A stretch of 64,000 nucleotides of DNA from an uncultured Phycisphaerales bacterium (GCA_963844715.1 CAWJPJ010000006.1:1192907-1256906); one strand, 5' to 3'. Counted from the first letter of the stretch, positions 16,882 through 56,987 are shown. The notes: generated from the sequence alone by a model not told the origin. Numbers and translations: made by a program.

Positions 16882-17148
16882 GTGCGCTATCGATGGAACG
16901 ATTGGAACAAAGAGCACATCGCCGAACACGGAATGACGGCACCCGATGCGGAATATGTTGTTGATCACGCACGCGCCCCTTATCCCAAAACCATTGGCGA
17001 TGGCAAGCGGTTGGTCATCGGACAGACCTCCAATGGGCGATACGCCCAAGTCATTTACGTATTCGATGATGATGGCACCGCATTCGTTATCCATTGCCGC
17101 CCTCTAACCGACGTGGAGAAGCGACGTTACCGTCGCAAACGCAAATGA
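16882..17148 (+). CDS. BrnT-like toxin
   Basis: YRWNDWNKEHIAEHG...VIGQTSNGRYAQVIY...FVIHCRPLTDVEKRRY. Confidence 0.8.
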   Translation: MRYRWNDWNKEHIAEHGMTAPDAEYVVDHARAPYPKTIGDGKRLVIGQTSNGRYAQVIYVFDDDGTAFVIHCRPLTDVEKRRYRRKRK

Positions 17149-17443
17149 GTCGCCATAAGAAATATTGGGAAATGACCAAAGCCGAACTCGCCGAATCCAC
17201 CAAGGAATTCGACCAGGAATTCGTCGCCGACAAAGCCCGCCCAATGACTGCCGCCGAGGCGCCGAAGAAAAGCGGGCTCGCCGGGGCCGGCCAAAAATCG
17301 GCAAAGGCTCGCGAAAGATTCATATCACCCTCGAGCGAGGCCTCCTCGCCGAGGCCGACAAATTCGCCCGTCAACAAGGCTTAGCTCGATCCGAACTGAT
17401 CGCTCAAGCCCTGGCAAGCATCGTCGCGAGAAAAGCCGGATAG
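17145..17443 (+). CDS. CopG/RHH antitoxin (frameshift ~17258)
   Basis: MSRHKKYWEMTKAELAESTKEFD then RGRPKIGKGSRKIHITLERGLLAEADKFARQQGLARSELIAQAL; ATGA overlap with the toxin. Confidence 0.75.
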
Positions 17444-17460: not shown

Positions 17461-18247
17461 TCACCCCAGCAAATCCCCCATCGAATACCTCCCCGCCTTC
17501 TGCTTCACCAGCCATTTCGCGGCCCTCAGCGCCCCCAGCGCAAAGGTATCCCGCGTGGTCGCCACGTGCCCGATCTCCACTCTTTCCCCCAGGGCCGCGA
17601 AGTAAACCGTGTGTCTCCCCACTTCATCCCCCAGCCGCAGGGAGTGCATTCCGATCTGCCCGCGCTGGCGAGTCTCTTCCGCTCCATGCCTGCCATACAC
17701 CAGGGCCTTGCGCGATTTTCCGGTTGCCTTCAAAATCGCATCAGCGATCGCCGCCGCCGTCCCGCTCGGCGCATCTTTCTTGAATCGGTGGTGCCCCTCG
17801 ACGATTTCCACGTCGTAATCGTCCCCCAATCGTTCCGCCACTTCCGCCGCGACTTTCAGCAGTACATTCACCCCCAGGCTCGTATTCGGCGCCTGCAAAA
17901 CCGGAATTTTCGCCGACGCCACATCGATCGCCGCATGATCCTTCTCCTTCAATCCCGTCGTCCCGATGACCATGGGAATTCCCCGATCCCGGCAAGTCTT
18001 CAGCCAATGCCGGGTCGACGCCGGGAGTCGAAAAATCGATCAGCACATCCGGCCGCGGCCGCAAATCAAACGTGATCGGCAGCCCTATATTTCCAATCCC
18101 CGCCATCTCCCCCGCATCATGCGAAAGATGCGGCGTCTCCGGCTTATCGATCGCCGCCACCAACTTGAAATCCGCATCCGCCTTGGCCAGCGCAATCAAT
18201 CTCATCCCCATGCGCCCGCACGCCCCGGTGATCGCCAGTTTGATCAT
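17461..18247 (-). CDS. dapB: 4-hydroxy-tetrahydrodipicolinate reductase (frameshift ~18025)
   Basis: GACGRMG, IDFS, VIGTTG, EGHHRFKKDAPSGTA, FALGALRAA. Confidence 0.95.
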
Positions 18248-19845: not shown

Positions 19846-20861
19846 ATGCCCGATCCACGTCCCGCGCGTTCGCGCTCTCAGACGCCCCCCTCGGCCATGG
19901 ACCAGGTCGCCCACTGTGTCGCCGCCGAGATGATGCAGGTCGAACTCCTCTTCGACGAGGAACTCGGCAGCCAACTCTCCTGCGTCAACCAGCTGGTCCG
20001 TCATGTCAGCCGCTTCCGCGGAAAAATGCTCCGCCCGCTGCTGCTTTTATTGACCGGCAAAGCCTGCGGCTCCCTCGAAGCGCGACCACGTCGTCCTCGC
20101 CACCGTCGTCGAAATGGTCCACATGGCGACTCTCGTCCACGACGATGTCCTCGACGAAGCCGAACTCCGCCGCCGCGGCGCGACGATCAATCATCTCCGC
20201 GGAAACGAAGCCGCCGTCCTCCTCGGCGACTATCTCATCAGCCACTCTTTCCATCTCTGCTCCAGCCTCGACTCCCAATTCGCCTCCCGCATCATCGGCA
20301 AAACCACCAACGAAGTCTGCGAAGGCGAACTCCTCCAAATTCACAACCGCAACAATCTCGATCTGGAAGAAGAAACCTACATCCAGATCGTCACCCAAAA
20401 AACCGCCGCCCTGTGCGCCGCCTGCTGCCTCCTGGGCGCCTATTCCTCCGGCGCGGGAGAAAGCACCGTCGAATCGATGCGCCTCTACGGCCTCTCCCTG
20501 GGCACCGCCTTCCAAATCCAGGACGACATCCTCGACATCGTCGGCGACCAAACCACCGTAGGAAAAACCCTCGGCATCGACGTCCAAAAAGGCAAGCTCA
20601 CGCTCCCCATGATTCATTTCATGAACACCGCTCCGCGCGAGCACCGCACGCTGTTGCGTTCCCTGCTCCTCAGTAGAGAAGCCGACAAGGTCGAGCGCAT
20701 CCGCAACCTGATTCTCCCCAGCGATTCCGTCCAGTACGCCACCGCAAGAGCCCGCCGGCTAGTCGATCGCGCCGACCGCATGCCTAAAACCCCTCCCCGA
20801 CTCCCGCGCCAAGGAATTCCTGGCCCAACTAGCCGAGTTCGTAATCAGCCGCCCGCTTTAG
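19846..20861 (+). CDS. Polyprenyl diphosphate synthase (two frameshifts)
   Basis: GKMLRP, LVHDDVLDEAELRRR, FQIQDDILD, GKLTLP. Confidence 0.9.
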
Positions 20862-20973
20862 AGGTAAGCTTCGTCCTACCTTTTCCCACCCGCATCCCCA
20901 CCCGACGCGCCTCTTCCAACCATTCCACTTACTCCCCATAAAACAATTTCGCCAACGCCACAATTCCAAAATC

Positions 20974-21061: not shown

Positions 21062-21265
21062 TCATTCCGACGACCCGCCTGCATCCCTCCGCGAGCTCGC
21101 TTCCCTCGATTTCTGAAGCTGCAGCACCAGCCAATGCGCCTCTTCCAGCCAGGCCAGCTTCTCCGCCAGCGGGAGCTTCGCCATCCGCTCCATTTGCTGC
21201 TGCCGATGGCCCTCCCATCCGACTTCCCAGACCTCTTCCGATTCGGGTTCGTTCGATGAATTCAT
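21062..21265 (-). CDS. Small hypothetical protein (67 aa)
   Basis: WEVGWEGHRQQQMERMAKLPLAEKLAWLEEAH. Confidence 0.55.
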   Translation of the reverse strand: MNSSNEPESEEVWEVGWEGHRQQQMERMAKLPLAEKLAWLEEAHWLVLQLQKSREASSRRDAGGSSE

Positions 21266-21350
21266 GGTGTGCCCCCCATTATACCCCACCCCTTGCGGCC
21301 CCCCACTGGACATCCGCTACAATATATATGGACGCAAACGAGGATCCTGA

Positions 21351-22620
21351 ATGAAAAAAGTTGCCAGTTGCCAGTTGCCAGTTGCCAGTACCAGCAGTAG
21401 TAACGGCAAAAGGCAAGCCCCTGTCTTTACTGGCAACTCGCAATTAACAACTGGCAACTATTCCCGCGGCTTCACCGTCCTCGAACTCCTCGTCGTCATC
21501 GGCATCATCCTCGTCCTCCTCGGCATCCTTCTCCCCGTCATCAGCAAGGTAAAAACCGCCAGCTACTCCGCCGACACCCAGCAGGAAGTCAGCCAGCTCT
21601 CCACCGCCATCAACGAGTATTACTCCATCTTCCACGCCTATCCCGGCCCCTTCACCAACGACCAGATCGAAGCCGAAACCAGCGGAGCCACCAGCGGCAT
21701 TCCCCTCGGCATCGCAAATTTTGAGATTTACACCGACGGCGCAACCAACCCCTACGGCACTCCATCCACCACCCCCTGGACCGTCACAGGCACCGAAAAC
21801 CTCGTCCTCGGACTCCTCGGCGGACTTCGCATCGATACCACCGGGTCGCCGCCAACCAACAACCCCGTCTTCGCTCCCAGTGAAGTCGGTCTAGGCCCCT
21901 TGAGCCTCAACCCCGCAAATCCACGCCGCTACAGTCCCTTCATCGACACAAAAAATATACTCTGGTGCAGCCTCAGCGGACCGACCACTGCCCCGCAAGT
22001 CAGTCAATCGAATCTCATGCCCACCAACCCCTCCAACTTTCACGATCTCGCCGGCGTCTCCGCCTACGATTCCGAAATCCCGGAATTCGTCGATCGCTTC
22101 CCCGTGCCCTTGCCCATCCTTTATCTCAGGGCCCGCACCGGCGCCAAAAGGCATCATCAGTGACGGAACAACCGTCGGCATACCCCCCATCAGCCAAACG
22201 GTTCCGCCTCTTCGCGCCTACCAATACGACATCCGTGACATTTACGCGTACGTCACCAACACCACGAGGCTAGCCACCAGCTCCGAGAATGAGGGAATCG
22301 GCCTGCCCTTGGGCCGCTACCACAATCTCGGGCAACTCGCCCTCCCGAGCACCATCACATCCTGGCCCCCGGCGAACCCCGCAAAAGCGGGGCAATACAG
22401 CACCGATACCATTTCGAACTATGATGCCTTCGCCTACTTCGCCAACTTCTCTTCGGTCCCCCCAAGCCTTAGCCAGACCGGCGACGTTCCCGCGAACGCC
22501 TGGGCCAATTACACCGGCCAGCCCCGCTCCGTCGATCAATTCATCCTCATCACCGCCGGCCCCGACAGAATTTACGGAACCACAGACGACATAACGAGTT
22601 TCGGCGATGTCGCCCAGTAA
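21351..22620 (+). CDS. Prepilin-type protein 1, GspG-like (frameshift ~22148)
   Basis: RG|FTVLELLVVIGII; C-terminal FILITAGPDRIYGTTDDITSF; 40-aa repeat-encoded leader. Confidence 0.88.
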
Positions 22621-22662
22621 AATCATTCCCCCCAGCCATTGGACAAAGCGAATAATCAATTG

Positions 22663-23835
22663 ATGCGAGGCACGAAGGCACATAGGCACGAAGGCACGAA
22701 GGGAAATCCTTCCGAATTCACTCCGTGCCGAAGCGCGCTCGCCCCGGCGAGGGCCTCCGTGCCTCCGTGCCTCTCTTCCCCCCCCACTGGCAACTCTCCC
22801 CCCATTCGTCCCGCCACGGCGGATGCTGGCGCACATTCGGATTTCGGATTTGGTTCGGATTTCGGGTTTCGGGCTTCGGGTTTCCGCGCCCGCCGCGGCT
22901 TCACCGTCATCGAACTCCTCGTCGTCATGGGCATCATCATCGTCCTGGCGACCTTCCTCTTCTACGCCTATCAGAAGGTCGTCCTCGACCGAAAAATCAG
23001 CGACACCAAAACCGCCCTGCAATCCGCCAAGGCGCTCCTCGCCAACTACGAGCAAGCCACTCACTACCGCCGTCCTCCGCCAACTCTCTTCTGCTCTCTG
23101 TGGGGCAACGCCCAATGGCCCCCGATGGGCACTTCCTTCAGTTCCAGTTTTTGGACCGCGGGCATCACCAGTATCGCCAACGCCCCAGGCGCCGGCGAAC
23201 CCGCCGCCACCGCAATCAACCCCGATATCTTCAACAACACAAATGCGAGCTTCTGTCCCGTTCAGCTTGCCGACACCATCTGCGCCATGTACGCCATTCA
23301 ATCCATCCCCGAAAACCAGGCCATCCTGAATAGTCTGCCGACGAATCTGAAAAAGACCGTCCAGGTCACACAATCTCAAGTAACGGGAAACAACGCGCCG
23401 GTCGAGACCGTCACCCTCATCCTGGACGGCTGGGGAAACCCGCTCCTCTTCGCCCCCGCCGACGGCTTGTACGGAGTCGAAACTTCCGCCGACTCAACAA
23501 CGACCCCTCCCGCCGGCACCTACCCGCAGGGTCAGCAACTCTTCTATCGCAAGCTCGGTTCAAACGAGCCCTTCATTTACACCGCCATCCTGCCAAACGG
23601 CGCGTCGGGAGCACCGCCCTATCCTCCGCCATCCTTCGTCATGTTCGTTGGAACAACAACCTCGTTTCCGCTGACTATCACGGCTCAGGGTTGGGGCGGC
23701 CTCTGCGATCCCACCGGCCTACGCCCCTATTGGGTCTCCGGCGGCCCCGACGGCGACGTCAGCAATACCCACTATCCCCAGTTCCCAGAGTTGACCCGTC
23801 ACGACGACGACAACATTTATTCGTTTAATAATTGA
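22663..23835 (+). CDS. Prepilin-type protein 2, GspG-like
   Basis: RRG|FTVIELLVVMGII; LDGWGNPL, WVSGGPDG...DDNIYSF; start uncertain (22639 or 22663). Confidence 0.88.
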   Translation: MRGTKAHRHEGTKGNPSEFTPCRSALAPARASVPPCLSSPPTGNSPPIRPATADAGAHSDFGFGSDFGFRASGFRARRGFTVIELLVVMGIIIVLATFLFYAYQKVVLDRKISDTKTALQSAKALLANYEQATHYRRPPPTLFCSLWGNAQWPPMGTSFSSSFWTAGITSIANAPGAGEPAATAINPDIFNNTNASFCPVQLADTICAMYAIQSIPENQAILNSLPTNLKKTVQVTQSQVTGNNAPVETVTLILDGWGNPLLFAPADGLYGVETSADSTTTPPAGTYPQGQQLFYRKLGSNEPFIYTAILPNGASGAPPYPPPSFVMFVGTTTSFPLTITAQGWGGLCDPTGLRPYWVSGGPDGDVSNTHYPQFPELTRHDDDNIYSFNN

Positions 23836-23837
23836 GC

Positions 23838-24957
23838 ATGAAAATGCCAGTTGCCAGTTGCCAGTTGCTAGTTGCCAGTAAATACGGGAGCCGCCGTCCC
23901 CCCGTCTTCACTGGCAACTGGCAACTGGCAACTCGCAACTATTCTTCCGGCTTTACTCTGGTCGAAATGCTCACCGTCCTGGCCATCATTGTTCTCGTCC
24001 TGGCCAGCGCCGTGCCCGTCTTCAATTCCCTGACCGGCAATCACAGTCTCGCCGCCGCTCAGAACCAGATTGCCTCCTTGCTCCAGACCGCCCGGCAGGA
24101 CGCCATCTATAACCGCCAGACCATGGGCATCTTCTTTTATATCGATCCCGCCACCGACGCCGTCGCCATGGCAGAAGTCCAACTCGATCAGCAGCAAGGC
24201 GGTGGAACGACCTATTCCCCCTCCGAGATTTATGTCAGTCCCACCAATACACAATCAACCGCTCCCCCGCAGGGTCAAGTCAACGCCATCGAAATGGCCA
24301 ACTATTGGGACCCCTCATTGACCGCTCCCGGCCAGGTGGGTACCGGCGAATTCGTCTACTACCGCGACGTCGTCACACTCCCCGCGAATGTAGGCATCGC
24401 CCTTTACAACAACTCGGTGCCCTATCCGGCCAACGGCGACATACACGCCCCCCATCATCGACCGCTACGTCCGCACCGGCGCGATTTTCTTCGATTCCAC
24501 GGGGGCCCTGGCCTCCATCCCCTATGCCGTCCAGCAAACGCGAATTACGCCATACGGCACCTTTCAGAACCATCTCGGAATCCGGCTCGGCCTCCGCGGC
24601 GCCGGCGATCCCAGCGGCTTAAATGCAACGGGCGATCTCGCCAGCGACATCAATGATTATGCCGTCAGCGGAACCCCCGTCTATTATTTCCCCCTCATCT
24701 CCCAGGTCGGCCTCCTCTTCTACGACCGCAGCGCCTACTTTAACCAGCGAACCACCAACCCAGCCGACGTCAACGGCCCCCGCGCCTTCACCGATCAGGA
24801 CCTTCAATACACGCTTCCTCCACTGTCCAGTCCCCCCAATAACAGTCCGCTGGCCTATTTCCAGGCCGACAAATCCGATGAAGAAATCTGGCTCGACCAA
24901 AACGGCCAGGCCGTCATGGTCAACCCCTTCAACGGCGCCCTGATCTTCGCAAAATAA
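23838..24957 (+). CDS. Prepilin-type protein 3, GspH/FimT-like (frameshift ~24450)
   Basis: SG|FTLVEMLTVLAII; AAAQNQIASLLQTARQDAI; second frame ends VNPFNGALIFAK*. Confidence 0.85.
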
Positions 24958-24959
24958 CC

Positions 24960-26253
24960 ATGCCCACGCGCCATTCCATCCCGACCGCCCCCTTAACCGC
25001 CAAGACGCGAAGAGCGCGGAGCCAAAACTGGCAACTGGCAACTGGCAACTGGCAACTATTGCGCCATCGCGGCTTCAACTTCATCGAAATCCTCTTCGCC
25101 GTCATCCTCCTGGGCCTGGGCTTTATCATGATCGCCGGCGTGTTCCCCGTCGCCCTGAAACAAACCACGCAAACCGCCACCGAAACCACCGCTGCCCTCG
25201 TCGTCCGAGACGCCCTGCGCGACATCCAAAACGCCGCCGACGTCGAAGGCGCGGGCACAACTTTCGCCCAAACGCCAAACGGCTTCACCCCAATCCCAGC
25301 GTCAACTATTGCCGCCGTCGGCGGAAATCAGTTCTATGCCTCCGATCCCCGCTACGCTTGGGTCGCCTTCTATCGAAGAATCAACGCCACCGACCCCTAC
25401 GCCCAGGTCGTCGTCATCGTGCTCCAAAACCCCAACTTCGCCGATCCCACCTACCCCCTAAACCCCCTCCACGAACCCGGCAGCATCACCCCCTACAACA
25501 TCCCCGGCACTCCAACCCCCACATTCAATCCCCTCCCGCCACCCATCCCGTCCAATTATGCTGGCGGTGGCACCGCCACAATCAGCAACACCGCGCCTCA
25601 GCAAACCGTCCCTTCCGGCTTTTACGTGAATAACTCGGGCACTCCCCCATATCAAGTCGTCGAATCTGGTAACCCGCCAGGCCTCTCTCCCATCAACGCC
25701 AATCTCTTTTTCTCCCCCAGCACTGGAAACAGCTACATCTTCCTCAACAACGACCCCAACATCCGCAACGGCGCCGACCCCGTCCCCAACGCCGTCACCG
25801 GCGCATTCGTCTTAATCGCAAACGACACCGGAAACGCCGCGCCCAGCGCAGGCTATCTCGCCAGACCCGCCAATGAAATGACCGGTCGCGTTCTCCGCCT
25901 CGGCGCCTTCATCGGCTACAGCGACGACTCGACCCTCCGCCTCCCCGGCGACCTCAATCTTTTCCCCCCGGATTTTCCCAAGCCGCCCACGCTCCACTCG
26001 CAGATTTTCGCCCTCGCGCCCGGCTGGGACCTCACCCCCGGCGGAACCGCGGGAGGCACAACCCAATACGGCATGGAAAATACCGGCGCAGGCCTCAAAT
26101 TCGGCCGACACCCCCGCGCCACTCCCCGTTTACATTATGGGCGCAGCCCCAGAATGGACCGGCTCCATAACCAACACCACAGGCCTCTACACAGGCCCCA
26201 ACCAGGACGTCGCCGCCGTCTCCTCCTACATCCGAATCAATACGGCAAATTAA
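24960..26253 (+). CDS. Prepilin-type protein 4, GspI/PilV-like (frameshift ~26100)
   Basis: RG|FNFIEILFAVILLGLGFIMIAGVFPVAL; second frame ends SSYIRINTAN*. Confidence 0.85.
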
Positions 26254-26254
26254 A

Positions 26255-28366
26255 ATGCGAAGACGAGTTACCAGTTGCCAGTTGCCAGTTGCCAGCCAAT
26301 GCGGGAACCGCTCCCCCATTCGTGATTCGGATTTCGGACTTCGTCATTCGGGTTTCCGCCCTCGCGGCGGCTTCACCCTCGTCGAACTCATGATCTCCAT
26401 CGCCATCGTCCTGGTCCTCATGGTCGGCGTGAACTACGTCTTCAAGAAAACCGCCGACGCCGTCGTCGCCGGACAAACCACCAATACCATGTCCCGCGAC
26501 TCCCAGTCTGTTCAGACCGCCCTCTTCGACGATTTCTCCCACATCAACAAAAATCCCCCCTGCTTCATCATCGCCTCGCAGATGGTGGATCAATTCCTCA
26601 ACTCCGCCGACGCCGAGACCGGCAGCGATCCCACCATCGTCGTCCTCGACAACGGCAGCAGCGGCGCAACCCCCACTAAAGTCATCGCCGGCCTCTACAA
26701 CTACCGCTGCCACCGCGTCGACATGCTCAAATATTTCGTCCGCGGAAACTATCAGCGCCGCTCCGCCAACGACGGCTCCTTCACCAGCCAGACCACCTCC
26801 AACGACGCCTTCGTCACGCTCGGCCACGCCCTCCTCCCCACCAACGACTCCATGGATTTCCTCGGCCCCGTGAGCGACAACCTCAACCCCTCCCTCGCCC
26901 CCTTCGGCCAGCTCGCCTCCAACAGCACCACCTCCGGCCTCTGGACCCCCCAGGTCTTCACCACCGGCGCAGGCCCCCAGCAGCGCCTCGGCGCCTACGC
27001 CTCCGATTGGGTCCTCGCCCGCAGCGTCACCCTGCTAAAAGATGTCAACACCAATTACACTTACGTCACCAACTCCAACACCCCCAACGGCTTCATCGAA
27101 CACTTTTACCCGCGCTATCCATACCTTTCCTACACCGCCAGCAGCCCGGGCGTACCGACAACCGTCAACTTTCCTCCCACATACCAGACCACCTTCGCCT
27201 ACCCCTACGCCGCAAACGGCTGCAACATGACGCCCCTCGCCTATTACACCCCCGACGACCAAAACTTCACCAACAACCAGCTCACCACCGTCTCCCATTC
27301 CTCCCGCTACGATCTCGCCTGCATTACCCCCGACCAATTCCGCCGCGCCATCGCCGATGAAATTCTCCAGTACCAGCACGCCGGCTACACCGGCCCCACC
27401 GCGTTCCCCTCCCAATTTCATCTCTGGTGGAACCCTCTCATCTACAACCTCCCGGTAACCCAGCAATACGCCGCCGTAATACCCACAACCGTCTCCCCAA
27501 CCGTCACCTACTACACCGTGCCCAGCGGCCTCTCCAGTTCGACCGCCCTCTATACCTTCTCCGGCGCCAACGGCGTCACCAGCGGGACCGGCCCCAACCC
27601 CGATCTCGCCCGCGTAGCCGTCAATCCCCAAATTCAAACCCCGCTCACCAGCGCCATGGTCGCCCAGGTTGCCCCCTATCTCCTCCAGCACTGCTCTCAG
27701 TTCATCGTCGAGTACGCCGGCGACTATCTCCAGCAGGACCCCGCCTCGGGCAACCTCACCGGCATCGGACAGGACGGACAAATCGACTACTACATCGACG
27801 GCAGCGGCAACCACCAAATCCGCTGGTACGGAATGCCCCGCAGCAACTCCGGCGCATCCACCATCTACGGCGTCCCCAATCCCAGTGACACCAACGAGCC
27901 CTGGAGCACTTATCTCCCCAACGTCGGCACCGCCACCAGCCCAAGCATCGCCATCAATTATCGCCAGATCGCCACCAGCATAACCCAATACACCTATTAC
28001 CCCGGCCTCCCCGACGTCATCCCCCTGCGCGATTATTACACCCTCTTTTATAACACCGTCAACGGAACCACCGGCAACCCGTTCATCTACTCTCCCCCCT
28101 GGGAAGTCGACGTGAATTTCGACAATTGCGCCTTCTACGCCAATGCCACCAATCCAAACCTGGGACCCCTGGCAAACACCGCCGGAAACGGCCTCGGCAA
28201 CCCCTTCCAGATGAATGACTCCCTCAACCCCCAGGACAACGCCCGTTACGTCGCCGCCTGGTACAACGACATGCCCGCCATGATTCGTATTCTCATCAAG
28301 GTGGACGACCCGAATGATAAGTTAAAGGACGGACCCTGGTACGAATATGTGTTCAAGTTGAAATGA
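26255..28366 (+). CDS. Prepilin-type protein 5, GspJ/PilW-like (703 aa)
   Basis: GG|FTLVELMISIAIV; C-terminal PAMIRILIKVDDP...YEYVFKLK. Confidence 0.88.
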   Translation: MRRRVTSCQLPVASQCGNRSPIRDSDFGLRHSGFRPRGGFTLVELMISIAIVLVLMVGVNYVFKKTADAVVAGQTTNTMSRDSQSVQTALFDDFSHINKNPPCFIIASQMVDQFLNSADAETGSDPTIVVLDNGSSGATPTKVIAGLYNYRCHRVDMLKYFVRGNYQRRSANDGSFTSQTTSNDAFVTLGHALLPTNDSMDFLGPVSDNLNPSLAPFGQLASNSTTSGLWTPQVFTTGAGPQQRLGAYASDWVLARSVTLLKDVNTNYTYVTNSNTPNGFIEHFYPRYPYLSYTASSPGVPTTVNFPPTYQTTFAYPYAANGCNMTPLAYYTPDDQNFTNNQLTTVSHSSRYDLACITPDQFRRAIADEILQYQHAGYTGPTAFPSQFHLWWNPLIYNLPVTQQYAAVIPTTVSPTVTYYTVPSGLSSSTALYTFSGANGVTSGTGPNPDLARVAVNPQIQTPLTSAMVAQVAPYLLQHCSQFIVEYAGDYLQQDPASGNLTGIGQDGQIDYYIDGSGNHQIRWYGMPRSNSGASTIYGVPNPSDTNEPWSTYLPNVGTATSPSIAINYRQIATSITQYTYYPGLPDVIPLRDYYTLFYNTVNGTTGNPFIYSPPWEVDVNFDNCAFYANATNPNLGPLANTAGNGLGNPFQMNDSLNPQDNARYVAAWYNDMPAMIRILIKVDDPNDKLKDGPWYEYVFKLK

Positions 28367-28371
28367 GAAAG

Positions 28372-28610
28372 GAAAACCCGAATGACGAAGCCCGAAACCA
28401 GAATCAATGACCCAAGCCCGAATGAGTTACCCGATGCTCATCGCGGGTCTTTCTGAGGCCTCCGCCCACGGTACCCCGCGGGTGGAGAAAGGATCCGGTC
28501 ATTCGGATTTGTCGCCACGGCGACTCGCCTGCGGAGAGATTCGTCATTCTGGTTTCTGGTTTCGGATTTCCCGTTGATTCGTCATTCGGATTTCGTCATT
28601 CGGATTTTCA
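28372..28610. repeat. Composite nested palindromic repeat element
   Basis: CCCGAATGACGAAGCCCGAAACCAGAATC ... GATTCGTCATTCTGGTTTCTGGTTTCGGATTT...TTCGTCATTCGGATTT, enclosing hairpins CTCCGCCCACGG-TACC-CCGCGGGTGGAG and GTCGCC-AC-GGCGAC. Confidence 0.85.
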
Positions 28611-28627
28611 AAGCCGGGTAAAAGAGT

Positions 28628-31600
28628 ATGAAGCTCGCTCATTTAACTTCACGCCGCTGGAAAAAAGGATCAGTCCTCCTATTGGTCATCGTCCTGCTCC
28701 TCCTCCTCTCCATCCTCGGCACCGCCTTCATCTCCACCAGCCACAATGACCGAATCAACTCCCAGCAAAATATCCTCAACGTCCAAAGCGAAGCCAACTT
28801 CGACGGCCTATCAAAAATCATCGGGGGGTTGTTTGTCGATGATCTTAACGATGCCCTGGGCAACTTCCGTGGAATGATGACTTCGTCGTTCCCGCCAGGT
28901 TATCTCGGCCAATGGAACGCCGCGCAAACATACTCCGCAGGCAATACCGTAAACGACCCGGCTAATCCCGCTAACTTCTACACCTGCATAAAAAATACCC
29001 TCACGCCGGGAATCTTACTCACCAACACGACCTATTGGTCCGCGCCCTTTCCGTGGTCGAATCCACGCTCAACTTTCCGCGGAGTATGGTCGCCCCTCCT
29101 AACCTACGGCTATGGAGACACCGTGGCGTACGAGGGAAACCCGGCCGTCGTCGGCGGCGGAGTTATCCCGGTCTTTTATTACGCCAATAACCCAACTACG
29201 CCGCCCGTCACCGGAACCGCCCCCCCAAACCCGGCGGCGCATGGACTTTGGCTACTCACCTTCCCTTCACCGCCATGGGACCTGCTCAACCCTGGCTTGC
29301 TGATCGAATTCCATCCGTTGCGGATCCGTCGCAGCCGCTCGAGGGCACCGCCTCAGGGGGTACCGTAAATCAGCCTTATTGGCAGAATATCTCTCACTCG
29401 GGAACAGCCGGCGCATTATCCGTCCTCGGTTTGCCGTTCGAATCGCCTGATGGCAGCGCGATGTTCGGAACCCTTCCAAGCACGGGGCTTTATCCCGGCT
29501 ATGCAACTCTCGCTAACGTGACCGTCCCGACCCTGAGTGATACATCCCTCGACACATTTCCGGAAACGTCGCCATTACCCGCCCTTCCGTTGCAAGCCGC
29601 ATACGACGGTATCAATACCGGCGGGCATATAGTGATAGCCGCCGACGCCGACGGCGACGGCATCGCCGATTCTCTCCTCTTCCGAATCCCTGGCGCCAAT
29701 TTTGACGGCCTCACCTGGTATGCCGCCGTCCGCATCATCGACAACAACTCCGCCATCAACGTCAACACCGCCTGGACCCGCGACAACGAATACTCCTACC
29801 CCGCCGGCGGCAACGTCTCGCAGCTCACCAACTGGGGCTTCTTCCAGTCCGGCGTCGGACTTTTGGAAATGCTCAATGACGGAAATCTCGGCATGCGCCC
29901 CGGCGGCGATCTCGCCACAGTTCCTGCTGGCTGGGGGGCGACTGCCGTGCAGATTAACCCCGCCTTCAACCAGTACCGCTTCAACGTCCCCGCCACCGAA
30001 AATCCCCCCATGGCCGGACGTGTCTCTGGACTTTACGCTCAGTCCGGCGGCATCCCCCTGGACGAGACCTGGCAAACGACCTTCACGGCACCACAGGACG
30101 TCACCGCCCGTGATGGAGATTTCGTTTACGTCTCGCCCGGCGACGCCTTTGAACACCAGCTCATCGACCGTCTTGATAACCCGGGCTTCAACACCTACAC
30201 CGCCGGCAACCCCGCGGTAGGAAACAACCGGTTCCAGGCCATCCCCTTCAGCGATGAGGCGGCCCTCGCCTATCATTTCGGCATCCCCAATTCCAACACC
30301 GGCCAAACCCTTCTCGAAAGCCTTCTTCCCTACTCGCTGAGCTACTACCAGAACAACCGCGTCATCACGGGCTCGGCCTCTCCATTCAGCGATTACAATA
30401 TTTCGATAGGCGGCTCAAACACGACGCTCGCGACAACCACGGATGAAAACAAAAACGTCCCCGCGACCCCGGCGAACGCCACGACGACCAACGTCCTCCC
30501 CACCGCGCCCTACGGCGCTTTTCCCGTCTCGGACGTCGGAACCTGGTGGTATCAGAACTTCGATTACAACACCCTCGCCAACTGGCAGGCCGCCGGTGGA
30601 AATCCCAGCTATATGCCCCTTCGCCCTCTGCTCGTCACCCGAAACCCCGTCTCCAACTACATCGATCCCGTCTACGACTCCGGCATCTGCGATCCCCAGC
30701 AGCCTATGGACACTCTGCCGCAGTCCTCATTTCCCGGGGAGGGCGAGCCGCTCGGGCAAGTGATGCTCCCTTACTACGGGACCGTCGCCGGCAACCAGTA
30801 CCAAGGCACCTGGTCCGCCACCCCGCCCGCCGGCGCTTACAAGTTGTACGACGTCGTCTCCTACAACGGCTACTACTTCTACTGCTTAACTCCGCCCGGA
30901 ACCGGCGCTGCCGCCGGCTTCGGGCACCATGGTCAACGGCAACTTCGTCATCACCGGCTACGACGCGAACTGGGGAACCTGGGGACAATATAAAGGTCTT
31001 TGGAACACCGCTGCACTCTACCGCTTCAACGACCTCGTCACCGAGACCGACCCGGCCACGGGCGATACTTACACCTATGTCAGCGTCGACGATGCGAACC
31101 AGAACTTTAATCCCGTTACTACAGTGGCTGGCGCCCCGCTCAGCGGGTATCCCCAAAACCTGCAACACTGGCAGCTTCAGCCCATTAGCCGGCACCCCGT
31201 CAAGACCAACATCAACACAGCCACCTTCCGTGAACTCTATCGCGCATTCTGGTCCGTCATGGCCGGAAATCCCGCCAATTCGTGTCCTTTCGCCCCAACC
31301 CCTGCCGGGCCCGCCGCCCCCAACTATCAGAACGCCAGTACCTACGATAGCCCTTACACTCTAGCCAACGCAGGTGCGTTAAATATCCCGTGGCACATGT
31401 TCCGTTCCGTCCTGCGCGATCCAACGGCGCCCGCCGCCCCAGCAACACCGAATACTTTCATGGACCCCACCAACGTCGCAGCCCTGCGCGCGGCGTTGGC
31501 CGCAGTGAACGCCTTAGGCCTGCGCGATCAGACCCAGACGATCATCAGCCGAACCATCTGGCTCGCCGCCTATGTGAACAATGTCGCCTCCGTGGTTGAG

Positions 31601-33848
31601 GCGCGCGTCTGACAGCGCCATCCCACAGCCGATTATCAGCGAAGTCTACGCCGACAATGACATTTCCACCGGGAACCTGAAAGGTTACGTCGCCATCGAG
31701 CTTTACAATCCCTACAACACGCCTATCACGATGAACAATTGGCAGGCGGGGATCATTAATCGCCAAAACCCCGGTGTTTATCCCGCCATGAGCTTGACGC
31801 CTGTAGCGGCCAATGCCCTCCTCTACACGGAAATGTTCCCTGAAAATACCGCACCCCTCCCCTCCGACGCGACCAATGTCGCCTCGCCAGCCTTAACGGA
31901 AAACCAAAACGCGATCGCCATTCCCGCGCATGGCTATGCTCTCCTAGAGAATTACGACGCCAGCGCTTCACATGGCGGCAACGCCGACCTCGTTTATGAC
32001 GCCAAGACCCGCGCGCCAAATTGCACGATACCGACCGGAGCCCCCTGGACTGGCTCAGGAGCCACCAACAATACCGTGGACGTATACATTCCAGGATTGT
32101 CAAAGGTAATCCAGGACGTCGCGCCCGTCACCGGCGGCGAATTCGTCCTCCTTCGCCCGCGCCGTGCGGACGGGACGTACACCCAAAACATTACGACTAA
32201 TCAGACTTACGACCCATTGAATGACTACAACGAAGGAGCGCCGTCGCCCGGCACGCCCAACCTTTACGACCTGGTCCCCGTCGATTCATACGACTTCACA
32301 GGTTTTCAAACCACAGCCATCACGCCTTATACCGCGTGGAGCTACCTCCGCGCGAAAAGCCAGAATAACGGCTTCTTTGCCTTCAATCCTGGACCCTACG
32401 TCGGCACCAATGCCGGAATTACTTTCCCCCGCCAATACCCAGGCACCGACGCGGAACAATTCGGTGGTGCGGGCTTCCCCGCTACTCCCCAATGGCGAGC
32501 AGCGGCTCCCCCGCTGGGAGCATCCACCCCAAACTTCGGACCCATATACACGGCATCGTCTGCGGCAAGCTATTTGGACGTACCGACGGTACCAATCCAA
32601 ATCTATAACCAGGGAATGCCCGGACCAAACCCAACGGTGACCCCGGCCAATCCACCCACGGTTGCCAGCGGGACCACGACTTCCCCGCCCCAGCAGTTCC
32701 CGTTTGGCAGCTTCGCCCGCAACGGCGACATCCTCAACGTCCCTTACATCGGCGCTTATCGCCTGCGCGTCGTCATCCAGGCATCTAAGGTCATCCCATT
32801 CACGCCAACCAACCCTGTGGCGGATTTCCTTGAACTGAATTCTCTTCCGATGGATGCGTCTCTCGCCGACGATGGAGATACGAACGATGACGGGTACGAG
32901 AACGTGGGACGCTTCGGGCCAATGGAAAGCAGCGCCAATCCCGACGCACCGTCATGGTACGACTGGACGGCCCGGCTGTTTGACTACCTGACCGTCCAGT
33001 CCAACAGCAGCAATTTGACGCCCAACTTTGATCCCGGATTCAACGATCCGGGCACCAATACGGCCGGGGGTGCACAGCCGACGTATCCGTATGCACAGAA
33101 GTACTGGCCCGCGTCTCAGTCGGGTAATCCGACGTCATACGGATTCGCGCCGTACTCCGTAGGCCCTCCGGCATCCGGTTATGCCAACCCAACCGGGGCC
33201 ACTGCTCAGCCGACCCCCGTGTTTAGCCCCGATGCCACGGCCACCAACCAAATGAGTCAGGACAACGCCGGCGTTGACGGCCTCATCAACATCAACACCG
33301 CCAGTTGGAAAGTCCTCAGCATGTTGCCCTTCGTAACTGCCGCCGACGATGCAAACTATGCTATCGACGATGAAACGATTGCCCAGGCCATTGTCACCTA
33401 TCGCAATGGCAACGGTCCCTTCACATCCATCTTTGATCTAAACAAGGTTCCCGGTTTCCAAACCGGGAACGGCAAATTCGCTCTGGGACAGGATCCGACC
33501 CAAATGGGCATCACGGGAACCCCCGATACGGTCTTTACCGCCGCAAAGGGCGCCGGCGTCCTCACCAATGTCAATTTTGCCAATGAGTATCGCTCCGCCA
33601 ACATGGTCCTAAACCGCATCAGCAACCTCATCACCACGCGCTCCGACACCTTCACCGTTTACATCGTCGTCGAAGGCTGGCAAAACGCCATCCTCCCCGG
33701 CCAAGTCGCCTACAATCCAACCACCCCGACCGGCCCGCCCCCCATCCTCAAAGTCACCAAGCGTTTTTCCTTCATCGCCGATCGAAGCCAGATCAATTCC
33801 GACCTCAACACCCGTTTCCTAAAAACCCTGGTCATTCAAAATAATTGA
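28628..33848 (+). CDS. Giant GspK/PilX-like minor pseudopilin (~1,740 aa; frameshifts ~29240, ~30920, ~31610)
   Basis: KKG|SVLLLVIVLLLLLSILGTAF; DADGDGIAD; four W-x4/5-Y-xx-D-x-V-like modules; ININTAS...IAQAIVTYR...GPFTSIFDL (HhH); RSDTFTVYIVVEG. Confidence 0.8.
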
Positions 33849-49270: not shown

Positions 49271-49495
49271 CATTCTGTCATTAAGTCATTGACCTGGCCT
49301 GGTCGCCGCGGCGACTCATTTATCACCAGTCATTCGTCATTCCGCCCCCATCCCCCTCCTCACTAGCAACTTACGACCATCCACGCATTTCCACTGGCAA
49401 CTGGCAACTAGTCGAAGAGCCGCCGTGGTGGCCAACCAGCAACCATCCCCGCATTTCCACTGGCAACTGGCAACTAACAACTGGCAACTATTCCC
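49271..49495. repeat. Intergenic repeat cluster: ACTGGCA heptamers, GTCATT units and a 35-bp direct repeat
   Basis: ACCATCC(A/C)CGCATTTCCACTGGCAACTGGCAACTA at 49376-49410 and 49442-49476; ends AACAACTGGCAACTATTCCC. Confidence 0.85.
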
Positions 49496-54999: not shown

Positions 55000-56987
55000 T
55001 TAAGCAATGCACTGGCTCATTTGGAAAATGAACAAGCAAACGACATACGCCAGCGCATTCATGTAAATCAGCATAAAGATTGGCCAGCCCCAGCCGCCGG
55101 TTTCCCGGCGAACCACGGCCAACGTGCTCATGCACTGCATCGCCAGCACAAACCAGACGAGCAGGCTGATTGCCACGGGGGCCTTCCACACCTTTCGTCC
55201 ATCGGGATAGCGGTCGGCGAGCATCGCCTCGGACAAATCGGCCCCGTGGCCGTCTTCTACGTCGCCGGTGCTGTAGACGATTCCCATCGTTGAAACAAAG
55301 ACCTCGCGGGCCGCGAAGGCGCTGACCAGGCCGACTCCCATCTTCCAGTCATAGCCCAGCGGCCTGATCGCCGGCTCAATCAAATGCCCAAATCGGCCGG
55401 CGAGCGAGTGATTCATTCGTTCGGCAGCGACGACGTTGGCCGAAGCGCCGGACGCTTCAAGGTGACGCAGATACTTTTGCGATACGCCGTAATAGGTCAG
55501 GGCCCAGAGCAGGACGCTCATGCAGAAGATCACGGTGCCGGCCTTGGTGAGAAATTCGGAGGTGTTCACCCAGACCTGCCGGGCAATCTCCGAGCCCTGC
55601 GGCAGCTTATAACTCGGGCAGTTCCATAATAAACGCATCGGTGGAGCCCTTCAGCAGCGTTCGCCGAAAGATCCACGCTGTCCCGGCGGCGGCGAAGATG
55701 CCCGCCGCATACACGGCCAGCATGATTCCCGCCTGAACCGCTGGTCCGCGGGCGGCAAAAAATGTCGCGATCAGAAGCGTGTAGACGGGCAGGCGAGCCT
55801 GCAACCCATGAAGGGCGCGATCAGGATCGTCGCCAGGCGATCTTTGCGGTTCTCGATTGTGCGCGTCGCCATGATGCCTGGAATAGCGCAGGCGAAACTG
55901 CTCAGCAGCGGTATGAACGATTTGCCGTGCAGTCCGACTCGCCTGAGTAATCGATCCATCAGAAATGCCGCGCGCGCGAGGTATCCGCTGTCCTCCAGGA
56001 TCGCCAGGAAGATGAACAGGAGCGCCGATCTGCGGCACGAAGGCGACCACCGCCCCAACACCCGCGAAGATGCCGTCGGTCGACAGATCGCGCATAGGGC
56101 CTTTGGGCAAATGTGCGGCGACCAGCCCGCCCGTCCATTGCACGCCGTCCTGGATCCACTGCATGATGGGCTGCGCCAGCCAGAAGATCGTCATGAATAA
56201 TAGACTCATCACGGCGGCGAAGATCAAAAGGCCCCATATCTTGTGAATCAAGATTGCATCGACACGTTCGGAGAGACTTCGCGAAGAGGTGACGCCTTGC
56301 GAAGGACCATCGCCGCGAGATCGAGCGGTGACTTGCTCGATCCAATCGTAACGCGATTCGATATCGGCCCGCATCGGGTCGCTATTGGCGTGGCGCTGAT
56401 GCTGCGAAGCGCGCAAGCCAATCGGGCACCACCGGTTTCCTGGCATGAACGATCGCTTCTTTAAGTTCGGCGATGCCGCGGCGCTTGTGCCCGATGATGG
56501 AGACCACGCCGATGCCGAGTTCCTGTTGAAGTTTCGCTGGGGATACTTCCATGCCGCGCCGCCGCGCGACGTCGATCATGTTCAGCGCTAGCACCACAGG
56601 CTTGCCCAATTCAATGACCTGGCTCAGCAGATAAAGGTTTCGTTGAAGATTGCTTGCATCGACGACAACGACAATAGCGTCCGGTGACGGCGTCTCCGCC
56701 CGTAGGCCGCGCAGAACCTCCATGGTTACGCGCTCGTCCGGCGATTGGCTCACCAGGCTGTACGTCCCCGGTAAATCGATGATGTCGATCAAACGCCCGT
56801 CGAGCAATCGGCAACGCCCGCTCTTCTTGTCGACGGTCACGCCCGGATAGTTCGCCACTTTCTGGCGCAGCCCGGTCAGGGCATTAAAAATCGTCGTCTT
56901 GCCGGAATTGGGATTGCCCGCCAGCGCCACTGTCATGGATGCCGTTCGGACGGAGCGAACAGGAGGTTGTTTGCAACAAGCTGGCAT
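55000..56987 (-). CDS. feoB: Ferrous iron transporter B (several frameshifts)
   Basis: [55 protein letters not shown]. Confidence 0.93.

Follow-up and report, generated by a model that had tools for sequence, protein, structure and literature searches.

Why does the DNA between the start codon and the prepilin-peptidase site of five consecutive genes consist of short repeats that are dispersed through the same genome? The question arises in a window of 64,000 nucleotides (the whole stretch of DNA analysed; G000:C6:1192907-1256906) from an uncultured Phycisphaerales bacterium, whose genome (G000) has 4.55 Mb and 59% GC. At 21351-28366 on the plus strand of the window, the leader-coding DNA of five consecutive prepilin genes holds in-frame 7- or 8-mer repeats. 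The original prediction proposed that disposable leaders act as an in-frame safe harbour, or that the repeats are exapted as translational hairpins or as recombination handles. The first proposal agreed best with our results: leaders turn over, their frame stays open, and other cleavable or dispensable N-termini behave alike. On this reading, which we consider probable, the leader is a tolerant harbour for repeat DNA, which is probably translated before prepilin peptidase cuts off the product, and the repeats have no pilin-specific job. Repeat-built prepilin leaders are real and widespread; they are a form of tolerated in-frame repeat insertion that is apparently undescribed and most likely passive.

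Repeat-bearing leaders of the prepilin operon

All five leader stretches start with ATG, have a length that is a multiple of three and are free of in-frame stops. The leaders (40, 79, 38, 38 and 39 aa by sequence check) all terminate in Gly, followed by F-x-x-x-E and a hydrophobic run, and have a net charge of +5 to +7. The open frames and the arm positions confirmed that the five leader stretches of 38-79 codons contain repeat DNA, and the arms of genes 1-5 were found where they had been described (Table 1); the TTCGGAT-type arm of leader 2 is at 22836-22881. Leader 5 is spanned by a short-read contig with zero substitutions. At the junction before gene 6, a 260-nt hairpin stays intergenic and the leader has an ordinary 14 residues.

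Three traits of type 4 prepilins were found: a hydrophilic leader ending in Gly, a hydrophobic run with Glu5 (N_methyl), and an encoded prepilin peptidase (PF01478 at G000:C6:1166415-1166720, E 2e-20, about 48 kb from gene 1). PF07963 (Pfam N_methyl) scored over its cut-off in genes 1, 2, 3 and 5; in gene 4 the N_methyl motif was recognised by eye and the profile match was a weak one to PilV only. The generic TIGR02532 was the sole NCBIfam pilin model above cut-off. Because the specific models fell below their cut-offs, assignment of a filament type was dropped, and we can say only, from weak matches and gene order, that genes 3-6 look like the minor-pilin series GspH/FimU, PilV, PilW/GspJ and PilX/GspK. 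Among at least 126 named loci, those that matched genes 4 and 5 best were Tepidisphaeraceae/Phycisphaerales records with 47-56% identity, so a Phycisphaerae planctomycete is the likely source.

Reading frame in orthologous operons

Gene 5 was matched in 32 of 36 same-family genomes (a tally that includes G004). We scanned 33 orthologous loci, 31 of which gave 127 pilin-to-pilin junctions. The order of genes 1-5 was kept in G002, G019 and G030, with mature parts 28-54% identical (no match was listed for gene 4 of G019). The leader arms were of GTTGCTA type in G002, GGCAATC in G019, GGTTTCG in G030 and TTTGCAA in G018, and four genomes (G013, G014, G025 and G027) had short plain leaders. Thus, unit, length and fold are all unconserved, since the leaders of orthologues are either built from unrelated repeat families or short and plain. 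At least one junction bore a tandem repeat in 17 of the 31 loci, and 90 of the 127 junctions were free of tandem repeats.

Stop codons, counted upstream of the last 15 codons, numbered 13 in the pilin frame of 30 repeat-bearing gaps of at least 90 nt, versus 48 and 56 in the other frames. A coupled open ATG (-11 to +15 nt from the upstream stop) was present in 14 of these gaps, and in 24 (19 when GTG was counted) over 25 codons separated the nearest in-frame ATG from the cleavage site. Repeat-covered bases alone gave 4, 17 and 10 stops by frame (p 0.009), and two G002 leaders made of TAG-containing units had 0 in-frame stops versus 10 and 9 out of frame. In a control of 88 repeat-bearing G000 gaps, the frames held 165, 183 and 160 stops, and the one coupled ATG itself belonged to a pilin gene. 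The expectation that leader repeats would vary among orthologous operons while the frame is kept was therefore borne out: repeats differ by lineage and the pilin frame stays open.

The long leaders of six relatives' loci (L023, L027, L030, L035, L043 and L045) hold in-frame non-tandem palindromes of REP-like and CCCTCACCC/GGGAGAGGG types. Thus, the harbour would not be limited to heptamers.

Traces of copying were seen in G018, where the two best matches of one leader among 81 were neighbouring leaders (96% over 96 nt and 87% over 110 nt). Four scattered pilin genes of the same genome (L261, L266, L271 and L276) have in common a long, nearly identical upstream block, which measures about 500 bp in three of them and is represented by its first part in the fourth. 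The blocks contain hairpins and a repeat-bearing leader, with the junction to the pilin genes at varying places. Both observations would suit the proposal that the repeats, with conserved pilin N-terminal DNA, are handles for swapping or duplicating pilin bodies. However, genes 1-5 keep order and identity in G002, G019 and G030 (gene 4 of G019 aside) despite differing leaders, the common G018 block reaches past the hairpin, and no swapped pilin body came to light. Of the proposal there remains indirect evidence of leader copying in one relative, and we regard recombination handles as quite improbable.

Start codons and assembly errors

Genes 3, 4 and 5 have their ATGs 2, 2 and 1 nt past upstream stops that end at 23835, 24957 and 26253, as had been stated; for genes 4 and 5 this is true when the bases inserted at 24439 and 26091 are ignored. 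Single extra bases at 22144, 24439 and 26091 (genes 1, 3 and 4) were absent from short-read contigs, and genes 1, 3 and 4 read across them end at 22620, 24957 and 26253. The possibility that these genes are pseudogenes was rejected because the extra base was missing in short-read contigs of two or three runs each. The runs were soil metagenomes of one study, which may include the window's own sample, and contig depth over the window was about 2-7. None of the runs listed for this stretch was of RNA, which has no bearing on its expression. Contig joints at repeats (e.g., 22846 to 23911) were disregarded, since they probably stem from other copies of the repeats. The short-read contigs also revealed a further single-base assembly error at 29235, and many other split genes of the window, such as those at 17461-18247, 19846-20941, 28628-33848 and 55000-56936, probably have the same cause.

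A different reading takes the repeats for untranslated 5' regions and places the protein starts at weak codons behind them. The claim that no in-frame ATG follows the repeats was true, but a TTG of gene 4, in frame at 25059, would start a canonical 5-residue leader 3' of the repeats, and an in-frame GTG of gene 2, at 22759, would leave the TTCGGAT arm inside the leader. Leaders 3 and 5 hold CTG or ATT codons. Among the relatives' 37 repeat-bearing junctions, the repeat lay behind the nearest ATG or GTG in 27, behind ATG only in 1 and upstream of the start in 8, and 1 was startless. TAACTGA repeats likewise lie mostly just 5' of start codons (PMC4679880). However, ATG, GTG and TTG are all absent 3' of the last repeat in leaders 1, 2 and 5, and this reading leaves stop avoidance and the in-frame upstream ATGs unexplained. 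The nearest ATG or GTG of the gene 4 orthologue in G002 is at least 56 codons away. We consider untranslated repeats highly improbable.

A promoter-like motif may fix some of these starts. It comprises TGGACA, 5 nt and a -10-like hexamer (TACAAT, GAATAAT or TATAAT type), often with an ATG 5-9 nt later; 30 relatives' operon loci gave 33 matches at the 5-nt spacing versus 0-4 at others. Across G000 the motif was not enriched (5-6 matches versus 1-9 at other spacings), and a role as general promoter of this genome was rejected. It is possibly an operon-specific sigma or regulator site. The mini open reading frame (ORF) at 21328-21354 starts 4 nt past the first copy and has a Shine-Dalgarno-like GAGGA at 21340-21344; gene 1 could be coupled to this leaderless mini-ORF.

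Folding of leader mRNA

Leaders 1 and 3 were predicted to fold far better than shuffles (-51.7 kcal/mol, z -6.7, and -64.6, z -9.9), with stems of 37-42 bp beginning 8 nt after AUG, and the 5' half of leader 2 had a z of -3.1. The 3' half of leader 2 folded no better than shuffles, and the same was true of leaders 4 and 5. The expectation of 5' mRNA structure thus held for leaders 1 and 3 and half of leader 2, and failed for the rest. A conserved leader RNA structure was rejected, as two leaders fold like shuffles and orthologues have no common sequence.

Such hairpins might nevertheless have been selected as dampers that reduce initiation or serve as RNase III cleavage sites, setting low levels of coupled minor pilins. 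A Coxiella 28-bp stem of heptamer repeats is indeed cut by RNase III (PMC4990558), leaders 1 and 3 are predicted to form stems of 37-42 bp, and the repeat density of the operon far exceeds the baseline. In a separate cluster, the first pilin of FTLVEILI type is likely the major subunit, and its leader is plain in the 5 genomes examined. However, an exapted translational hairpin cannot be general, because leaders 4 and 5 are hairpin-free, as is half of leader 2; moreover, most orthologous junctions lack a tandem repeat (90/127, as above) and the repeat-carrying gene varies between genomes. We regard dampers as unlikely. If hairpins do tune minor-pilin levels, type 4 filaments would have a previously unrecognised means of controlling stoichiometry.

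Repeat families of the genome

Family units gave 1153 tandem-doublet matches versus 1 for reversed units, and runs at lag 7 numbered 131 versus 7-15 at lags 5, 10, 11 and 13; therefore, the repeats are not due to chance. Both 7- and 8-periodic runs are over-represented in G000. Most repeat loci are intergenic (122/138), and a unit-based mask placed 156 of 172 family loci outside called genes and 16 inside. The arms are oriented to their neighbours: 15 of 48 GTTGCCA arms lie within 30 nt past a stop versus none in the reverse orientation, a second family is oriented likewise (22 versus 0 of 81), and TGGCAAC arms precede start codons. Tracts have 2-4.6 copies, often imperfect or interrupted, and the spacers of 11 GTTGCCA-family hairpins vary in length and sequence. 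The intergenic copies reported near 1942, 3683, 15618, 28372 and 49376 were all present. The copy at 49476-49495 does share its 3' end with the leader of gene 1, 49459-49495 matching at 94.6% over 37 nt.

The genome has seven genes for the four-helix-bundle family TIGR02436 (8 matches), and upstream repeat arms were seen by eye in five of the seven. One of them (C8:462829-463272) is enclosed by GTTGCCA/ACTGGCA arms, as in leaders 1 and 3. The leader copies are arms without a four-helix-bundle ORF, and complete cassettes with the same arms occur elsewhere in G000. Because a TIGR02436 gene is enclosed by the same arms, the leader elements look like gene-less arms of such cassettes.

At four further loci of G000 (C7:1402271, C7:753176, C7:195273 and C7:475999), family repeats appear to be translated at the C-termini of, or inside, called genes.

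Breadth and other dispensable N-termini

Named genomes were searched with a pattern in which a GCAAYYN-type arm lies within 30 nt of a G-F-T-L-x-E codon run, which gave at least 126 loci. Dropping five duplicate or incomplete loci left 121 among the matches listed, to which the following counts refer; they overlap slightly with the relatives' genomes. The 80 matches listed by title included Planctomycetota, Verrucomicrobiota, Acidobacteriota, Nitrospirota and Desulfobacterota, and other labels were single, possibly mis-binned records. The layout is thus present in at least five bacterial phyla. An open ATG upstream of the repeat was in the pilin frame in 103 loci and in the other frames in 9 and 13. 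Only 6 loci had an ATG between the repeat and Gly, five of which also had an upstream ATG; L062 of Rhodopirellula europaea 6C is a locus with ATGs both upstream and downstream. An in-frame ATG was absent in 17, and 4 of these also lacked GTG and TTG. Leader length had a median of 34 aa and a range of 16-131.

Prepilins are not the only proteins concerned. In G000, repeats lie in an open frame behind ATG in three lipoprotein signal peptides (C5:329268, C6:318656 and C7:785867), a Sec-type signal (C8:690187) and three membrane-protein N-termini, and in these cases ATG is absent after the last arm. The listed cytoplasmic cases have an ATG after the repeat, in a class that is biased by the gene caller. 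For three such non-pilin proteins, orthologues were compared at 19 loci each, and most of their signals are short and plain. In two orthologues of a BtuF-like lipoprotein (L233 and L245), the conserved MGQ start is retained and the repeat appears inserted behind it; nothing else in the data points so directly to insertion into a leader.

In a lipoprotein signal (L235, G032) and a Sec signal (L223, G067), a repeat arm appears to encode the hydrophobic core, so that the repeat would contribute a working part of the peptide. The BtuF-like genes L229-L248 have a conserved non-coding stretch reading YHPR directly before the MGQ start, which is probably the -10 element of a leaderless promoter. In the BtuF-like gene of G000, a repeat hairpin follows the YHPR stretch and MGQ is lost.

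A bolder reading would make heptamer-armed hairpins a cross-phylum class of repeats domesticated at the starts of genes for exported proteins. They would supply the start codon, the leader and sometimes the hydrophobic core, their stems would damp expression through RNase III or ribosome gating and so keep minor-pilin stoichiometry low, and gene conversion would spread them along pilin operons. We put this forward as a speculation of low probability.

Enrichment and points against the harbour

A family repeat lay within 150 nt of the cleavage site in 6 of 29 prepilins (32 motif matches minus 3 not starting with Phe); among the 3348 other genes, 52 had one (odds ratio 16.5, p 7e-6). Genes were called approximately, by a crude hexamer-score caller that truncated genes 2, 3 and 5. 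All six operon junctions carry repeats versus a baseline of 46 of 1730 same-strand junctions; the operon is therefore a repeat hot spot. Degenerate arms that escaped the mask are present in two more pilins, which belong to a second cluster. Among 49 leaders from 30 loci of five relatives, 7 were flagged: one was a GC-rich false positive, one came from this operon and four from one genome.

Several results count against the harbour as we have stated it. The operon supplies five of the six repeat-bearing prepilins; when it was excluded, 1 of 24 remained (p 0.32). The predicted enrichment over other 5' ends thus stood for the full set and not outside the operon, and a pilin preference across G000 is unsupported. 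Tolerance alone leaves the concentration of repeats at the operon junctions unexplained, and local copying must therefore be added; the copying signal in G000 is mixed, the best match of leader 1 being leader 3 and that of leader 3 an intergenic copy. The frame bias is shared by 33 long gaps without tandem repeats (15, 27 and 54 stops, 11 coupled), so it reflects long translated leaders and not a repeat-specific effect; several of these gaps contain other palindromes, as judged by eye. The p values are overstated because related genomes are not independent. The non-pilin control used the crude caller, whose chosen starts push cytoplasmic genes to the class with ATG after the repeat. The search of named genomes shows breadth and frame and not frequency, because its pattern selects repeats near the cleavage site. 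Finally, the TTG of gene 4 offers a normal leader behind the repeats, and translation of the leaders, although likely, is argued from frame statistics.

Proposed origin of the leaders

Oriented arms sit at gene junctions throughout the genome and flank TIGR02436 genes, and most copies are gene-less. Where overlap with the preceding stop (genes 3-5) or a promoter-like motif a few bases upstream (gene 2) fixes the start, an arriving element would be tolerated only behind the start codon and in frame. The 30-70 extra hydrophilic, net-positive residues would be harmless because class III leaders vary in length, stay cytoplasmic and are cut at Gly-1; cytoplasmic proteins, by contrast, would keep an ATG behind the repeat. 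In-frame stops and out-of-frame lengths, rare in the pattern seen, would be purged by selection. Copying among neighbouring leaders, which adjoin similar pilin N-terminal DNA, may then make minor-pilin operons hot spots.

If this is correct, repeat DNA can generally hide within genes in the part that encodes a discarded peptide, and the leader lengths suggest that prepilin peptidase may tolerate leaders far longer than 8-18 residues. The harbour would account for odd annotated N-termini such as 'NPQSAIRNPQS' and 'VASCQLPVAS' in Planctomycetota, Verrucomicrobiota, Acidobacteriota and Nitrospirota. Caution is needed with annotations, as gene callers truncate repeat-leader genes. The abundance of bacterial heptamers would become testable, with leaders as a translated, selectable reporter of element arrival and change.

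Relation to known systems

Cyanobacterial STRR sequences are heptamer tandem repeats. TAACTGA heptamers of Beggiatoaceae, cyanobacteria and Bacteroidetes are similar to the families described here in having 7-nt units in 2-6 copies, dispersed, mostly intergenic and oriented to neighbouring genes (PMC4679880). G000 has the same traits: short dispersed 7-mers, over-represented, mostly intergenic and gene-oriented. However, the TAACTGA repeats lie mostly upstream of start codons, whereas many arms here are paired, inverted and behind the start codon; the words 'pilin' and 'signal peptide' do not occur in the accessible text of PMC4679880.

In-frame insertion in genes is known for Rickettsia palindromic elements (RPE), which, like miniature inverted-repeat transposable elements (MITE), are dispersed palindromic repeats tolerated in frame and translated as an extra peptide (PMC10969869). 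RPE are about 150 bp, and their conserved peptide is retained in the mature protein of unrelated metabolic genes (PMC10969869), whereas the repeats here are lineage-specific 7/8-mer tandem arms with variable spacers and lie in the portion that is predicted to be cut off. The leaders thus have the in-frame insertion of MITE/RPE and lack a fixed-length conserved body and a conserved peptide. Heptamer repeats in a long stem 5' of a four-helix-bundle gene (S23p) are known from the 23S rRNA intervening sequence of Coxiella (PMC4990558). In contrast, the leader copies are gene-less, with no ORF enclosed by their arms, and would be read through in mRNA instead of rRNA.

Class III leaders are hydrophilic, vary in length, end in Gly and are cleaved on the cytoplasmic side in dependence on Gly-1 (PMC10191384, PMC6497953). 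The leaders here share these features with the long-leader class (type 4b pilus (T4bP) pilins and S. sanguinis PilE). PilE-type leaders of S. sanguinis have 8-18 aa, whereas those described here have 38-79 (up to 131 among the matches listed) and are repeat-built; a repeat origin is not mentioned in the accessible text of PMC10191384 and PMC6497953. Planctomycete prepilins are mentioned without repeats in the part of PMC8567305 available to us, and PMC3711429, as far as its text was accessible, concerns frameshift heptamers and was set aside as not relevant. We found no description of repeat-built prepilin leaders in a literature search that covered few subscription journals.

The heptamer repeat of E. 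coli neuO is of the phase-variable type. In Neisseria opa, CTCTT repeats lie in the leader-coding sequence (PMC3745409). The repeats here resemble both in having a unit indivisible by three in the 5' coding region of a surface-related gene. Slippage by 7 nt would shift the frame and could toggle the pilins, and a usable in-frame start is absent in at most 4 of the 121 named loci and 1 of the 37 relatives' junctions. However, opa and neuO have single slipping tracts that switch frame, whereas the repeats here belong to genome-wide families of short, imperfect tracts (2-4.6 copies, none long and perfect) that are almost always in frame. All five leaders are in frame, out-of-frame cases appear rare and are perhaps assembly errors, and a G019 leader was lengthened in 39-nt steps, a multiple of three. 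Short-read contigs revealed no unit-number variant in the leaders, at a low depth and with rare variants dropped from contigs. We give phase variation very little credence.

Coordinates and neighbouring genes

Table 1. Features of the prepilin operon and a related repeat copy (window coordinates)
Feature	Position	Strand	Basis or remark
Promoter-like motif, TGGACA then -10-like TACAAT	21307..21323	+	5' of gene 1; motif kept in relatives' operons; presumed function
8-codon upstream ORF, TGA overlapping gene 1 ATG	21328..21354	+	Putative; from sequence only
Leader 1, 40 aa: (GTTGCCA)4 21360-21387 and paired 3' arm from 21429	21351..21470	+	Hairpin, -51.7 kcal/mol
Prepilin gene 1, GspG-like N-terminus, about 422 aa	21351..22620	+	Extra base 22144 is an assembly error
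Promoter-like motif, second copy, ending 6 nt 5' of gene 2 ATG	22640..22656	+	Possible leaderless start
Leader 2, 79 aa: 8-mer arms GGCACGAA 22669-22700 and CCGTGCCT 22757-22772	22663..22899	+	Sequence and folding
Prepilin gene 2, 390 aa	22663..23835	+	Sequence and profile match
Leader 3, 38 aa: GTTGCCA arm 23850-23877, ACTGGCA arm 23910-23937	23838..23951	+	Near-perfect hairpin, -64.6 kcal/mol
Prepilin gene 3, GspH/FimU-like, weak TIGR02596 match, about 372 aa	23838..24957	+	Extra base 24439 is an assembly error
Leader 4, 38 aa: AACCGCCAAGACGC half-arm 24995-25008, (ACTGGCA)4 25027-25054	24960..25073	+	Hairpin-free; alternative TTG 25059
Prepilin gene 4, weak PilV match, about 430 aa	24960..26253	+	Extra base 26091 is an assembly error
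Leader 5, 39 aa, chimeric: GTTGCCA arm 26267-26294, TTCGGAT arm from 26326	26255..26371	+	Hairpin-free
Prepilin gene 5, 703 aa, weak TIGR02599 match, PilW/GspJ position	26255..28366	+	Profile match and gene order
Compound repeat hairpin, TTCGGAT/TTCGTCA/TTCTGGT families, intergenic, untranslated	28367..28627	+	-115.6 kcal/mol
Gene 6 leader, 14 aa, no Glu5; presumed PilX/GspK position	28628..28669	+	Internal control: repeat outside gene
ACTGGCA copy, intergenic, 3' end matching leader 1	49393..49495	+	Sequence comparison

Small ORFs at 16882-17443 and 21062-21313, amid housekeeping genes, look toxin-antitoxin-like by eye; those scanned gave zero Pfam or NCBIfam matches. The gene in the PilX/GspK position (28628-33848) is very large and assembly-split, with a C-terminal helix-hairpin-helix (PF12836), and its product is a possible DNA-binding tip subunit.

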